A stretch of 64,000 nt of DNA from Treponemataceae bacterium (GTDB lineage Bacteria > Spirochaetota > Spirochaetia > Treponematales > Rectinemataceae): NCBI GenBank assembly GCA_963677895.2, contig CAXXGJ010000038.1, positions 64,001-128,000 on the forward strand. Reading direction: 5' to 3'. The translations under genes were made by a program, and so were the position numbers. Shown here one piece after another: positions 35,456 through 39,901 of this stretch; positions within the stretch are counted from its first letter, which is position 1, and each line of letters begins with the position of its first letter. The notes under the pieces are model-generated. The model did not search any database. It was not told the DNA's origin and saw nothing but the letters and a program-made list of their open reading frames with translations.

Positions 35456-35528
35456 CGGGACGTAGCCTAGGGGCTAAGGCGTCTGCTTTGGGAGCAGAAG
35501 ATCGGAGGTTCAAATCCTCTCGTCCCGA
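35456..35528 (+). tRNA. tRNA-Pro(TGG)
   Basis: CGGGACG...TCTGC-TTTGGGA-GCAGA...GGTTCAAATCC...CGTCCCGA; TTGACA at 35410 upstream. Confidence 0.95.
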
Positions 35529-35550
35529 CTACGTACCTTTAAAGTCGATT

Positions 35551-35624
35551 GGGATCATAGCTCAACTGGATAGAGCAACTGCCTTCTAAGCAGTAGGTCG
35601 GGGGTTCGAGCCCCTCTGGTCCCA
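35551..35624 (+). tRNA. tRNA-Arg(TCT)
   Basis: GGGATCATAGCTCAACTGGATAGAGCAACTGC-CTTCTAA-GCAGT...GTTCGAG...TGGTCCCA. Confidence 0.96.
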
Positions 35625-35892
35625 TCTTTCCCTCCTCCTTTTTGATACACATCCATCCGCCGATGAGCTTCTCCCGCATTACCAAACCCGGGGTTCAATC
35701 TATACAGTGTAATCAATATGTTTCGCTAAAATTTTATTGTAAAGTTGATTGACAATTCAATATCCCGAATATAGTCTATCCATGCTTTTTATATCGATCC
35801 GCCTTGGCGTGAGAATTGATCGTCAAATCTTGATTCATGGCATCGCGTCGATGTAATCAACGCAGATTCTAATTTTCCGAAAAAGAGGGAGT

Positions 35893-37758
35893 ATGCAGGA
35901 AAACGAAAAAAAAGGAATCAGCCGCAGGGAGTTCGTAAAGCTTGTCGGAACCGGAGCGGCGGTTGTGGCCGGAGCCACGATAGTTCAGCCCTTGGCCGCG
36001 GATACCGGCAAAGTCGCTGATGCGAAAACCGTTAAGCCGACGCCCGCCGATCTGCCCAGGAAATGGGATCTGGAGGCCGATGTCGTGGTGCTAGGTGCCG
36101 GTGCCGTCGGACTTCCGGCCGCGATCAGGGCCGCCAAAGCCGGCGCTTCCGTCATCATCGTCGAAGCGAACTATGATATCGGCGGTCACGCTATCATCTC
36201 TGGCGGTAACGTTCCCCTTGGCGGCGGAACCAGCTTCCAGAAGAAATATGGCATAAATGACGATGCCGAAACGCTGTTCCGCGATCTTACGGACTGGTCG
36301 GTGGTGGAGGTGAGCGGCATGCCCGATTACCGCTACAACGACAGGGCCGTGCAGCGGGCCTTGGCCGACAATGAAGCCCAGACCTTCGAGTTCCTCCTCG
36401 CCCAGGGCGTCCCCTTTGTGGACAAAAGCCCCGACAATTCCGGCGGACATGCCGTGGGTGTATCCGCGAAACGCGAGCACCATTGCGTATGGACCAAGGG
36501 ACAGAACGCCGAGAGTCCAGCCGGAGCCGGCGGCACGACCCTCATGCGCGCCCTCGAAGACAGCGCCAGGAAAGCGGGCGTGAAGTTCCTGCTCAACTAC
36601 CACATGAACACCATCTACCGCGAACATCCGGATTCCGGCAGGGTATTGGGCATCCAGGCCAACTATACCCCGACCCTTCTTCCGGGATCCCTGTCCCCGC
36701 TTCCGAGTTTCAGGTCCGACGGCAATCTGGGCCTGGACCTCGCCGAAGTGACGATCAAAGCCAAGAAAGCCGTCATCATCGGTACCGGCGGAAGCACGGG
36801 CCATGTCAATTTCCGCAGGATGTTCGATTCGAGGCTGACCGAGGAAATGCCGTTGGCCGGAGGCGAATATTCGCCCCAGGACGCATCGGGCGAGCTCGCC
36901 GCCATGGCTATCGGCGCGACCCTCTGGGGAACCGCGAACCAGACCTTAGACAGGAACGGCGCTCTCAGAAAACGCCCGATCATCGGCACCAGGACCAATT
37001 ATGTCGGATGGAAGAAAGAATCCCCTCTCTTCCCGAAAGTGAAAGCCACGGGACTGAACGTCCGCAGCTGGCAGGACGCCATCATCGTCAATCAGGTAGG
37101 CAAGCGCTTCTACAATGAGATGGAAGACGGCTATCCGAACGGAACGACAGAGGGATACCTGAAGCCGTACGTCCAGGGCGATTGGCGCAACGCGCAGAAC
37201 GCCAAATTTGCCCCGATGAACTATCCTGACGCCGCTCTCGCCATCAACGAGGGCTCCACGGCTCCGGATTACTCCGCTGGTCCCCAGTGGGCCATCTTCG
37301 ACGCGGCGGCGGTGAAGCGCGAAAAGTGGGTCATAGACGGAACCAGCGTTCATCCCGACTATTTCTTCAGCGCGCCCACCCTTGCCGAACTCGCTGCCAA
37401 GATCGAAGCCTGCCCCTATCAGAAAGTGAAGATGCCCGCGGGTAACCTCGAGGCGACGGTCGCCGAATACAATAAGGCGGTGGACCTCGGCGTGGACGAG
37501 GCTTTCGACAAGCCGAAGCCCCAGTACAAGATAGTAGAGGGACCTTTCTACGCGGCCTGGGCCACGATCACCGTACACGATACCTATGCCGGCCTGAGAA
37601 TCAACCAGGAATGCCAGGTCATGAACATGGACGGCGAGGTGATTCCCGGCCTGTACTGCGGCGGCGAATCCGCGGCCGGATGCAGCCAGCACGGCCTGGC
37701 CCGCTGCCTTACCCAAGGGTATATCGCGGGAGCCGTTGCCGCAAAAGAGTCTGTATAA
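35893..37758 (+). CDS. Tat-exported FAD-dependent oxidoreductase, flavocytochrome c (fumarate reductase/FAD_binding_2) flavin-subunit family
   Basis: SRREFVK twin-arginine signal; DVVVLGAGAVG, KAVIIGTGG, VNQVGKRFYNE, L.ATV.EYN, GPFYAA, IPGLYCGGE. Confidence 0.92.
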   Translation: MQENEKKGISRREFVKLVGTGAAVVAGATIVQPLAADTGKVADAKTVKPTPADLPRKWDLEADVVVLGAGAVGLPAAIRAAKAGASVIIVEANYDIGGHAIISGGNVPLGGGTSFQKKYGINDDAETLFRDLTDWSVVEVSGMPDYRYNDRAVQRALADNEAQTFEFLLAQGVPFVDKSPDNSGGHAVGVSAKREHHCVWTKGQNAESPAGAGGTTLMRALEDSARKAGVKFLLNYHMNTIYREHPDSGRVLGIQANYTPTLLPGSLSPLPSFRSDGNLGLDLAEVTIKAKKAVIIGTGGSTGHVNFRRMFDSRLTEEMPLAGGEYSPQDASGELAAMAIGATLWGTANQTLDRNGALRKRPIIGTRTNYVGWKKESPLFPKVKATGLNVRSWQDAIIVNQVGKRFYNEMEDGYPNGTTEGYLKPYVQGDWRNAQNAKFAPMNYPDAALAINEGSTAPDYSAGPQWAIFDAAAVKREKWVIDGTSVHPDYFFSAPTLAELAAKIEACPYQKVKMPAGNLEATVAEYNKAVDLGVDEAFDKPKPQYKIVEGPFYAAWATITVHDTYAGLRINQECQVMNMDGEVIPGLYCGGESAAGCSQHGLARCLTQGYIAGAVAAKESV

Positions 37759-37890: not shown

Positions 37891-38418
37891 ATGTTTTTCA
37901 ATGAAAAAACAATGCGGAACTGCGCGATTGCCGTGGCCGTTTCGCTCTCGGCCGTAATGTTCGGCTATGCTTCATCGGACATACGATCGGATACGGGATT
38001 CGTTTACGATTCCGGCATCCAGTCGATTCAGGTCCAGACCACGCCGACCACGGTACAGCCGGCCGACGCCACGAGCGGGGCCAGCGAGGCGGCGGAAGAG
38101 CCCGCTTCGGATGCCGTTTCGAGCGCCACCGATGAAAACGCCGTCAAGGATTCAGCTTATTGCCTGAAATGCCACGGTCCGTTCGAGAAACTCGCGGAGA
38201 GAACGGCGGATTATGTGACGGAGTGGGATGAAAAAGCGAATCCCCATGTATATGTGCCGCATGAATCGAAGACTATCGTGGATTGCGTGGAGTGCCATAC
38301 TCCGCATGATGTACCGTTCAAGGCCGATGAGGGCGCAGCCAAGCCGAATGTCAATTACTGCTATTCCTGCCATCACGCCGAGACGCTCGTCAACTGTAAT
38401 ACCTGCCATAACGAATAG
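37891..38418 (+). CDS. exported tetraheme cytochrome c (c3/Fcc heme-domain like)
   Basis: Signal peptide; four CxxCH motifs (CLKCH, CVECH, CYSCH, CNTCH) with NPH/PH distal His. Confidence 0.9.
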   Translation: MFFNEKTMRNCAIAVAVSLSAVMFGYASSDIRSDTGFVYDSGIQSIQVQTTPTTVQPADATSGASEAAEEPASDAVSSATDENAVKDSAYCLKCHGPFEKLAERTADYVTEWDEKANPHVYVPHESKTIVDCVECHTPHDVPFKADEGAAKPNVNYCYSCHHAETLVNCNTCHNE

Positions 38419-38430
38419 GCGATAAAATTG

Positions 38431-38474
38431 AATAGCGGGGAAGCGGCTCGATGCCTTCCGCTTTTTCCGCTATT
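38431..38474. terminator. hairpin between the convergent cytochrome and tatB genes
   Basis: AATAGCGGGGAAGCGG...CCGCTTTTTCCGCTATT imperfect inverted repeat. Confidence 0.65.
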
Positions 38475-38802
38475 CTCTTTGGCTTTCTTCCGCTAGTTTA
38501 TCCAGTTCTTCCTGCGTAGGCTCAGCCTTGGAAGGGTTTTCCGGTGACGGAGAGACTTGAGGGGCCGCCTCGGTTTTCTTGTCTTCAGCCTTCTGGTTGT
38601 CGGAATCCTGTACAGCCGCGGTTATATCCATCTGCCTCATGAAATCGTCTTTGACGGCGGTGATTTCCTTGAATATCTTTTTAGCCTGCGCGTAATAATG
38701 ACCAAGTTTCCTGAAAAAAGCCGGCAGATCATCGGGACGTATGACGATCATGATCAGGAGAACGATAATGGCTAATTCCGAAAAACCTATGCCGAACATC
38801 AT
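38470..38802 (-). CDS. tatB: TatB-like translocase subunit
   Basis: MFGIGFSELAII...PDDLPAFFRKLG; TM plus amphipathic helix plus acidic tail. Confidence 0.85.
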   Translation of the reverse strand: MMFGIGFSELAIIVLLIMIVIRPDDLPAFFRKLGHYYAQAKKIFKEITAVKDDFMRQMDITAAVQDSDNQKAEDKKTEAAPQVSPSPENPSKAEPTQEELDKLAEESQRE

Positions 38803-39599
38803 TTTTCTCCGAATTTGAAAATCTTCGCGATCAGAAGAGCGAGAAAATAGAGGACGGTCAGGGGAATAGCGACCCCCAGCTGGCTTATGAAATCGGGGGG
38901 CGTGATGATCGCGGACGCGATGAATATCGCCACTATTATGAAACGGCTCGCCTTTAGTACCGATTTGCGTTTCAAAATATTCAGCATGAGAAGAACTTCC
39001 ATGAGGAGCGGCGTCTGGAGAGCGAGCACGGACCAGAGAATGAAGGAGAACACATAGAAGATATTCGCCTGATAATTGAGAAGATAACCGACGTTTTTTG
39101 GAATGAAGTAGGGATTCGTCAGGAAGCTGATGGCGAGAGGGACGATCCTGAAGTAGGCGAGATAAGCCCCGAACACGATCAGGACGAGACTGGAGAATAA
39201 AGTCCAGAGGATCACCCGCTGATGGCGTTTTTCCACTCCCGGAAAGACGAAACGCAGAAGGTTGAAAATATGGACGGGAGACGAAAGGATAAGGCCGGCA
39301 TAGACGGCGATCTTCATCTGTGAGGAGAAACCTTCGATGATAGTCGTCACCACGAGCTTGCTTTCCACGGCGCTGGATACGGCGTTGAACTGCCTGGTGA
39401 ATATGCCGATTATTTTATCCGAAAAAACAAACGACGCGATGGCGCATGCGAGAAAAGAACCCATGGATATGAATATGAGCTTGCGCAGTTCCCTTACATG
39501 CTCGATGAAGGGCATAACCTTGCCGGGATTTTTCACGTCTGCTGTCATAGTCTTCTCGAGGTCAGAGGTTTCAGACTTTTGAATCTTTCTTGCCTTCAT
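38799..39599 (-). CDS. tatC: twin-arginine translocase TatC
   Basis: MPFIEHVRELR, AIITPPDFISQL, six hydrophobic segments. Start may be ATG 39548. Confidence 0.95.
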   Translation of the reverse strand: MKARKIQKSETSDLEKTMTADVKNPGKVMPFIEHVRELRKLIFISMGSFLACAIASFVFSDKIIGIFTRQFNAVSSAVESKLVVTTIIEGFSSQMKIAVYAGLILSSPVHIFNLLRFVFPGVEKRHQRVILWTLFSSLVLIVFGAYLAYFRIVPLAISFLTNPYFIPKNVGYLLNYQANIFYVFSFILWSVLALQTPLLMEVLLMLNILKRKSVLKASRFIIVAIFIASAIITPPDFISQLGVAIPLTVLYFLALLIAKIFKFGEK

Positions 39600-39762
39600 C
39601 TTTTCCGGAACCTGTCTCCTGCGCGCTTTCCCCGTCTTTCATCGCCTTGGAGAATTCCTTCTTGGCTTCGCCGAGCGAGCGGGCGAACTTGGGAATGGCG
39701 CTGGCCCCGAAAAGCACCAATATGACCGCCACGATTACGATTATTTCCGTCGTTCCTATCAT
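39571..39762 (-). CDS. tatA: twin-arginine translocase TatA
   Basis: MIGTTEIIVIVAVILVLFGASAIPKFARSLGEAKKEF; AAGGAG SD. Confidence 0.93.
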   Translation of the reverse strand: MIGTTEIIVIVAVILVLFGASAIPKFARSLGEAKKEFSKAMKDGESAQETGSGKDEGKKDSKV

Positions 39763-39901
39763 GATAAAACTCCTTACAATGAAACAGAAAATGCATCGAT
39801 CCGGTGTCGTCCCGCGAAATCGACATGAACCGCGGACCTCGCCGAAGACAGTACATTTCATACTTATCGGTAGGCTATGTCAACACGTATTCGACGTCTT
39901 T

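Follow-up and report, generated by a model that had tools for sequence, protein, structure and literature searches.

A tetraheme cytochrome c from a Rectinemataceae spirochaete with conserved putative ApbE flavinylation motifs on a predicted disordered arm

Mrd/Mcc of G. sulfurreducens AM-1 is said to be a split flavocytochrome c respiratory reductase. In S. woodyi, ArdA needs ArdB for activity (10.1101/2024.02.11.579808; cited, like the other papers below, for the sections consulted), and 147 clusters for split flavocytochromes c have been counted (PMC8238504). Through FMN attached by ApbE, exported flavin reductases are connected to electron pools of the membrane (PMC8238504, PMC9973259), and flavinylated modules and cytochrome modules have been treated as alternatives (Meheust et al., PMC8238504). 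The same study presents a multi-flavinylated, multiheme RnfG of Christensenellales that is predicted to carry covalent FMN together with c-type hemes (Meheust et al. 2021, Fig. 6H, PMC8238504).

Here, we analysed a stretch of 64,000 nucleotides (the window) from contig CAXXGJ010000038.1 of a Rectinemataceae assembly, in which a gene for a twin-arginine flavoprotein is followed by a gene for a small cytochrome c with two ApbE-type motifs. The features are as follows (positions refer to the window):

35893..37758, + strand: FAD_binding_2 flavoprotein with twin-arginine signal, flavocytochrome c / PRK07121-like, 621 aa
37891..38418, + strand: tetraheme cytochrome c gene, 175 aa (ORF, Pfam)
37891..37971, + strand: export signal or anchor, hydrophobic N-terminus, residues 1-27 (cleavage site inferred by eye)
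37972..38160, + strand: arm, predicted disordered, rich in Ala, Thr, Ser and acidic residues, residues 28-90 (pLDDT, sequences)
38065..38085, + strand: motif 1 DATSGAS, residues 59-65, predicted FMN acceptor Ser65 (38083-38085)
38110..38130, + strand: motif 2 DAVSSAT, residues 74-80, predicted FMN acceptor Thr80 (38128-38130)
38161..38415, + strand: tetraheme domain with four CxxCH and four distal His (Pfam, alignment)
38470..39861, - strand: tatB-like, tatC and tatA-like genes, converging on the flavoprotein-cytochrome cassette (Pfam and by eye)

The preliminary description had placed four hemes and the two motifs in this ORF, and the 175-aa translation confirmed both, with DATSGAS and DAVSSAT 15 residues apart and N-terminal of the four CxxCH. 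The cytochrome matched Pfam PF14537 with 34.8 bits (cut-off 25), and no other ORF of the genome has three or more CxxCH. These motifs start at residues 91, 132, 157 and 169; further His at positions 119, 124, 139 and 162 fit bis-His ligation, and all eight His were invariant in a 60-row homologue alignment (A1, from which P0023, P0034 and P0041 were left out). Judged from the sequence, the hydrophobic N-terminus, modelled as a helix at residues 5-24 by AlphaFold2, and the CxxCH motifs imply that the cytochrome is exported. A loose lipobox-like pattern was matched by 20 of the 63 homologues described below. In the AlphaFold2 model, which is a weak one (mean 59), residues 28-80 had pLDDT values <50. 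The Pfam scan of the cytochrome gave no match to FMN_bind (PF04205), sequence and profile searches of the PDB gave no significant match, and the comparison with solved folds by Foldseek returned only rows with E >= 1, all of them flavocytochrome c3. A predicted complex of flavoprotein and cytochrome (score 0.00, controls not folded) is not used as evidence. A short hydrophobic [LVI]xQ[ATSD] element (window 38026-38037) lies ahead of the arm with the motifs in 45 of the 63 homologues; the motif-less Treponema homologues have LVMQA, which resembles it. This element is possibly a second processing site.

Motif 1 is an exact fit to D-x-x-[ST]-G-A-[ST], while motif 2 fits the form Dxx(s/t)(s/g)A[ST] and ends 10 residues ahead of the first heme Cys. 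In 200,000 shuffles of the arm, one strict motif arose 824 times and a pair of D..[ST][GS]A[ST] motifs 20 times. A recent tandem duplication was rejected as their origin: since only 11 of 21 bases match, the motifs are not fresh DNA duplicates. Residues D59, A60, T61 and S62 of motif 1 were at least 90% conserved in the homologue alignment; in motif 2, A79 was invariant and S77 at least 90% conserved.

The homologue search returned 65 proteins, and those with names belong to Rectinemataceae or other spirochaetes (the assignment of the family to Rectinemataceae was taken from the protein names). The counts are based on 63 sequences that have four CxxCH each and include the query; three rows had been dropped beforehand (P0064 and P0065, short and with three CxxCH; P0066, with two CxxCH and apparently frameshifted). 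The expectation that the motifs are conserved within a variable linker was borne out. A wide form of the motif, which was defined after the sequences had been inspected, occurred in 63 of 63 close homologues (shuffles: mean 3.9, maximum 12), and the strict ApbE motif in 21 of 63 (shuffles: mean 0.23, maximum 4), on arms that vary in length. After thinning to <60% identity the numbers were 23/23 for the wide and 8/23 for the strict motif. Altogether, the 63 arms contain 125 copies of the wide motif, one to four each, with DATSAAT (22) and EAVSSAS (14) as the commonest forms. Position -3 is Ser in 122 of the 125 copies, 47 begin with Glu, and 12 have Pro ahead of the acceptor. The final motif ends 10 residues ahead of the first heme Cys in 38 of 63 homologues and at a distance of 10-12 residues in 56 of 63, and this near-fixed spacing suggests a geometric constraint.

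These sequences share much of their history. In a quick, poorly resolved tree of the heme domain (90 columns), 64 of 67 motif-bearing rows fell on one branch with support 98, which also contains 16 motif-less rows, termite Treponema proteins included. The 63 motif-bearing homologues are therefore not independent. Taken together, the comparison indicates that the arm motif is under selection, yet mostly of single origin. Among distant representatives the wide motif was present in only 4 of 136 (drawn from the 150 matches listed of 320), and a sample of 400 other Spirochaetota genomes, which did not pick up the known Treponema homologue L016, gave no match. Within the family, the weakly related tetrahemes L030 and L031 and the hexaheme L028 contain DATSAAS or DTVSAAS, and the arm of L027 is without the acidic residue of the motif. 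The termite Treponema homologues have no arm motifs, although the L016 locus contains apbE, so the flavoprotein-cytochrome cassette can exist without a motif arm. At this locus (L016:5915-14286) genes for the flavoprotein, the motif-less cytochrome, resB, ccsA, tat genes, apbE and ubiD lie together. Other relatives without the motif have the heme domain joined to NapC/NirT (P0104, P0158, P0177) or to cytochrome b561 (P0141), and these fusions suggest an exchangeable module for electron input at the N-terminus.

The strongest sequence argument for reading the arm motifs as ApbE sites comes from RnfD of the same family. The RnfD site, the seven residues preceding Pro-Leu, reads DAVSAAT (5), DAVSTAT (5), DATSAAT (4) or a close variant in the 30 best-scoring family loci, and Gly occurs in only one of these 30. 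It aligns with DGVTTAT and DTVTTAT of the solved RnfD 7ZC6 and 9ERI, and we take the Thr preceding Pro-Leu to be the FMN acceptor. The solved chains are listed with one covalent FMN (PMC12174285). A 7-mer identical to one of the family RnfD sites was found in 21 of 63 cytochrome arms. SSAT had been called a non-canonical variant, a view that has to be revised: it is ordinary, because the covalent-FMN site of the family RnfD itself reads DAVSAAT, DAVSTAT or DATSAAT, and DGRSSAS of T. brucei is flavinylated as well (10.1101/2020.12.30.424822; see PMC8065229).

The published work on ApbE allows a closer view of the motif. Starting from the consensus D-x-x-[ST]-G-A-[ST], a seven-residue tag suffices for V. 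cholerae ApbE, exchange of Gly for Ala in the flavin tag keeps about 50% of the labelling, and exchange of Asp for Ala in the motif has minor effects (PMC12052999). Elsewhere the Asp is called essential, and flavinylation is shown to require an accessible motif (PMC10722498). In T. brucei, flavinylation did not occur on a nine-residue motif by itself (10.1101/2020.12.30.424822). FMN_red proteins with motifs on a C-terminal extension are flavinylated, and in L. lactis this extension was modelled as unstructured (PMC11334425). The activity of treponemal ApbE (Ftp) is established (PMC4436053). As motif 1 is canonical and exposed, we consider it probable that at least one of the arm motifs is flavinylated.

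The flavoprotein has the signal SRREFVK at its N-terminus and matched PF00890 with 129 bits; it stayed below the NCBIfam cut-offs of TIGR01813 and PRK07121, several of its other sub-cut-off NCBIfam matches are dehydrogenases, and no FMN_bind (PF04205) match was found in 35893..37758. The best single-sequence match in the PDB was a 3-ketosteroid dehydrogenase (4at0, E 4e-26), while the best matches of the profile were flavocytochrome c3 reductases. In Fcc3, Arg402, His504/505 and the Arg544 loop are presumably catalytic for fumarate reduction. In an alignment with Fcc3, R402 and H505 are both replaced in the flavoprotein (EITTR is paired with EMEDG and HHT with HDT), and its R544 loop (GANRLGG) is shorter. 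Because these key residues are replaced, the flavoprotein is probably not a fumarate reductase. It is the likely catalytic partner of the cytochrome. The two proteins were found always together, in 11 of 69 family genomes, all with apbE, and in 16 of 17 loci listed the flavoprotein gene is within about 5 kb of the cytochrome gene; at L034, the exception, it is hidden by an overlapping ORF call. Of the earlier proposal that the hemes feed a neighbouring FAD reductase, the pairing of the two genes thus stands; the dehydrogenase matches leave the direction less certain.

The tat genes likely export the flavoprotein. TatC matched PF00902 with 159 bits, the tatB-like protein was below the cut-off of PF02416, and the tatA-like one was identified by eye; by eye, tat genes also flank L015, L016, L034, L035 and L063. 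Genes for tRNA-Pro and tRNA-Arg (window 35456-35626) lie 270 bases upstream of the flavoprotein gene. With these tRNA genes adjoining and flanking genes that differ between genomes, the data are compatible with a mobile cassette.

In order to see what such an arm could work with, we turned to the genome itself (G000; 93% complete, 5.5% estimated contamination). The preliminary description had named apbE and cytochrome c maturation genes as something to look for, and both are present: there is one apbE, with a lipoprotein-like N-terminal signal (by eye), and System II heme attachment is encoded by ResB and CcsA. ApbE was found in 62 of 69 family genomes, and its presence therefore discriminates little. 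EetB- and EetA-family genes are also present. EetB exports FAD in Listeria (PMC9973259), for which reason a role as electron carrier was rejected; by analogy, the EetB-family protein is a predicted FAD exporter. A Tat-signal split-Soret-like diheme cytochrome is encoded directly before resB-ccsA (G000 C25:180156-182817, L012). Neither HemA nor HemB was detected in this genome (93% complete), and the heme is therefore probably acquired by scavenging; HemB occurs in 11 of 69 family genomes and in only one of the 11 cassette genomes.

The genome encodes four other full-length FAD_binding_2 flavoproteins, all with FMN_bind domains and two of them near-duplicates. The near-identical FMN_bind reductase loci lie on two short contigs (G000 C10:687-2909 and C16:4045-6078), possibly as a result of duplication or of assembly contamination.

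NapC/NirT scored over the cut-off in none of the 69 family genomes, and NrfD was not found in the 93% complete genome. Between 28000 and 48000 of the window (ORFs by eye, seven of them Pfam-scanned) no quinol dehydrogenase gene was seen, in line with the earlier statement; as an argument for the arm this had to be dropped, since motif-less loci show none either (55 proteins scanned, 49 of them neighbours picked by eye from 134). The related suggestion that the arm replaces a quinol dehydrogenase holds insofar as the heme domain elsewhere has NapC/NirT or cytochrome b561 as its partner. The arm would not itself oxidise quinol, and membrane flavin modules are the likelier donors. Candidates for membrane donors are NqrB-F, Rnf, a TmcC-like protein with an Fe-S partner, and an NDH-2-DoxX fusion; a PplA-like protein is encoded as well, below the cut-off. 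The TmcC-like and DsrK/TmcB-like genes (G000 C25:142985-144988) are below the NCBIfam cut-offs. The nqrB-C-D-E-F run at G000 C12:85808-89707 (L078) has no nqrA directly upstream, and its NqrB site reads DVVASAT. A locus with UbiD-like (two ORFs), MqnP-like and UbiX genes followed by an ABC transporter (G000 C25:52471-58123, L095) represents a possible quinone-precursor salvage; a full futalosine pathway is not supported, as MqnA/D were not found in the genome despite these genes.

The motif was not confined to cytochromes. The gene for the NDH-2-DoxX fusion (G000 C2:253524-255533; L194:7528-9534, - strand) adjoins a polyprenyl synthase gene and is present in all 11 cassette genomes and in 52 of 69 overall. 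Of the 30 best-scoring loci (homologues L197-L226), 29 have the motif in the loop after the first predicted DoxX helix (shuffles 1.7), together with repeated look-alikes of the ATS[AG]AS type, many of which have no acidic residue. The sole exception among the 30 is the genome studied here, in which the loop copies are without the acidic residue. This loop would face outward, and the fusion protein is a likely electron donor to the cytochrome arm. In genus g161 (L176, L178, L180), the RnfD loop is enlarged by extra motif-like copies and the RnfG tails have EATSGAS-type repeats. Two further proteins of the genome are candidate ApbE substrates: an exported molybdopterin-oxidoreductase-like protein with DTTSAAS on an arm and one CxxCH (G000 C2:64548-66035, L080), and an exported nitroreductase-like protein with DAVTSAT (G000 C6:272124-272774, L082).

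Other carriers have a less obvious connection to electron transfer. An exported TPR protein (G000 C22:23580-25148, L079), with no known redox role and present in 66 of 69 family genomes, often has the motif at the end of its low-complexity tail, sometimes with a Trp as the very last residue. Among 22 complete tails (homologues L097-L121; 3 of 25 loci were dropped because the gene ran off the locus), 14 contained the motif and 12 had it in the 12 C-terminal residues (shuffles 1.4 and 0.16). The tail of an unannotated lipoprotein likewise ends in the motif. Even cytoplasmic PspA/IM30 has DAT[ST]GA[ST] at residue 191, kept in seven loci (L143-L145, L159-L161, L139), which is a caution against predicting flavinylation from the motif only. 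As the TPR protein and PspA carry it, conservation of the motif is no proof of a redox role. The earlier reading has to be corrected in that the motif is not specific to this cytochrome: it recurs on flexible segments of several other proteins, some with no recognised redox function. Most motif carriers with a recognisable function are redox proteins, and the motif is rare in low-complexity segments of the genome, at 3 of 65 (home-made gene calls).

On balance, we favour a flavinylated arm that takes up electrons from membrane flavin modules and passes them via the hemes to the neighbouring flavoprotein. This model builds on what is observed, namely the motifs, their conservation, the match to the RnfD site and the genes for ApbE, EetB-family protein, ResB and CcsA, and it would comprise four steps. 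Periplasmic ApbE would attach FMN to Ser65 and Thr80. The arm would then swing to a donor, most probably the loop of Ndh2-DoxX or else the flavin of a PplA-like protein or of NqrC/RnfG, and its FMN would deliver electrons into the heme chain. Finally, the hemes would reduce the FAD of the Tat-exported flavoprotein, which would act on an organic acceptor, probably not fumarate. The arm would thus be an adaptor that joins a cytochrome-type cassette to a covalent-flavin periplasm and replaces the NapC or cytochrome b input found in other lineages.

The motif could also be a family-wide short linear motif for another purpose, most plausibly O-glycosylation, or else docking or processing, and the cytochrome an ordinary tetraheme partner on a decorated tether. 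The near-invariant Ser at position -3 would suit a glycosylation site, as PglL-type enzymes glycosylate Ser in Ala-rich linkers, and such a role would also fit a motif that closes the TPR and lipoprotein tails, at times with a terminal Trp, and that is repeated in Ndh2 loops without the acidic residue. Two Wzy_C-like (PF04932) genes of the genome score below the cut-off; the search for an O-oligosaccharyltransferase with PF11846 is uninformative, as its control matched nowhere. A general decoration signal is harder to reconcile with its rarity among low-complexity segments, with 7-mers identical to the FMN site of the family RnfD and with the predominance of redox proteins among the recognisable carriers, and our literature search found nothing on such a system in spirochaetes. 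We regard this explanation as rather unlikely. A somewhat different case, which we judge unlikely, is that ApbE does attach FMN, and that the flavin is a bystander, a redox buffer or a store, while a TmcC/NarI-like protein and its Fe-S partner feed the hemes directly. In Desulfovibrio, TmcA is paired with TmcBC. Genes for TmcC-like and DsrK/TmcB-like proteins are found in 9 of 11 cassette genomes versus 22 of 69 overall, motif-less spirochaete homologues exist, and the tagged tails of non-redox proteins suggest promiscuous labelling. However, the TmcC-like gene was not found in the cassette genomes G441 (91% complete) and G443 (69%), it is unlinked to the cassette where present, and the near-fixed distance between motif and heme suggests a geometric constraint.

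The electrons may, less probably still, flow in reverse: the flavoprotein would be a periplasmic dehydrogenase, and electrons would pass from FAD via the hemes and the arm FMN to Nqr/Rnf or the quinone pool. The 3-ketosteroid dehydrogenase as the best single-sequence match, the sub-cut-off dehydrogenase matches and the loss of the catalytic residues of fumarate reductase all agree with this direction. The profile points the other way, towards flavocytochrome c3 reductases. Bis-His c3-type hemes usually have low potentials. Furthermore, the characterised pair of flavoprotein and tetraheme cytochrome, ArdAB, is a reductase (10.1101/2024.02.11.579808).

Returning to the flavinylated arm as electron carrier, the distribution of the motif allows a wider, tentative reading, which we put forward with some doubt: a periplasmic network free of folded flavin domains, in which ApbE puts FMN on flexible arms and electrons hop from arm to arm. 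Its members would be the outer loop of Ndh2-DoxX as the source, the extra copies in the RnfD loop and the RnfG tail, several types of cytochromes as carriers, and the TPR protein as a scaffold. The arm of the tetraheme cytochrome would be the plug by which a cytochrome-type respiratory cassette entered this flavin network.

Should the arm prove to be both flavinylated and necessary, a natural 'flavin tag' would be enough to rewire a multiheme cytochrome. This would offer a route for anaerobes without detected NapC/CymA to use cytochrome-dependent reductases, and a respiratory capacity for spirochaetes of Rectinema's family, probably on scavenged heme. Rectinema cohabitans, a cultured member of this family, is reportedly fermentative. 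Bare motifs on disordered arms escape the surveys of flavinylation, which count folded domains such as FMN_bind. The motif arm is a real and conserved feature, and putatively a new form of ApbE-based electron transfer. As for novelty, the parts of the open-access literature that we consulted describe neither a c-type cytochrome whose disordered arm bears bare motifs nor a motif-studded Ndh2 loop. The consulted parts of 10.1101/2022.12.26.521950, PMC11323493 and 10.1101/2025.05.29.656830 likewise contain neither a bare-motif cytochrome nor a motif-studded Ndh2 loop; the gene-cluster tables of PMC8238504 could list bare-motif cytochromes. The preliminary description knew of no such architecture in a spirochaete, which agrees with these searches for the bare-motif arm; FMN and a multiheme chain in one protein had already been predicted for the Christensenellales RnfG.

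Compared with known systems, the locus resembles ArdAB, Mrd/Mcc and the fused Shewanella Fcc3/FccA in having an exported FAD_binding_2 flavoprotein and a small tetraheme cytochrome c (PF14537). It differs from these in that NapC/CymA was not found and in the motif-bearing arm of its cytochrome, and the flavoprotein departs from Fcc3 in its active site; the consulted sections of the ArdAB literature make no mention of cytochrome flavinylation for split flavocytochrome c systems. With flavinylated extracytosolic reductases and extracellular electron transfer of the Listeria type (FrdA, UrdA, PplA, FmnB/ApbE, EetB) the genome shares genes for ApbE, EetB/EetA-family and PplA-like (below the cut-off) proteins, and its NDH-2-DoxX fusion and four FMN_bind reductases also recall these systems. 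In FrdA, UrdA and PplA, FMN is bound to a folded FMN_bind domain, whereas here one chain without such a domain has the bare motifs and the hemes in series. Terminal segments with motifs are known from the tails of Lactococcus FMN_red, the N-terminus of kinetoplastid FRDg and the engineered Flavin-tag, in which one or two motifs are flavinylated, the Ser-Ser-Ala-Ser variant included; the flavin of FMN_red was modelled beside the protein's own flavin site, with no heme, and the Flavin-tag is artificial. Covalent FMN and c-type hemes in one polypeptide are also predicted for the Christensenellales RnfG, a subunit of a Firmicutes Rnf complex with folded FMN_bind domains and itself only predicted, whereas here the predicted disordered arm belongs to a cytochrome with a putative reductase partner, in a spirochaete.
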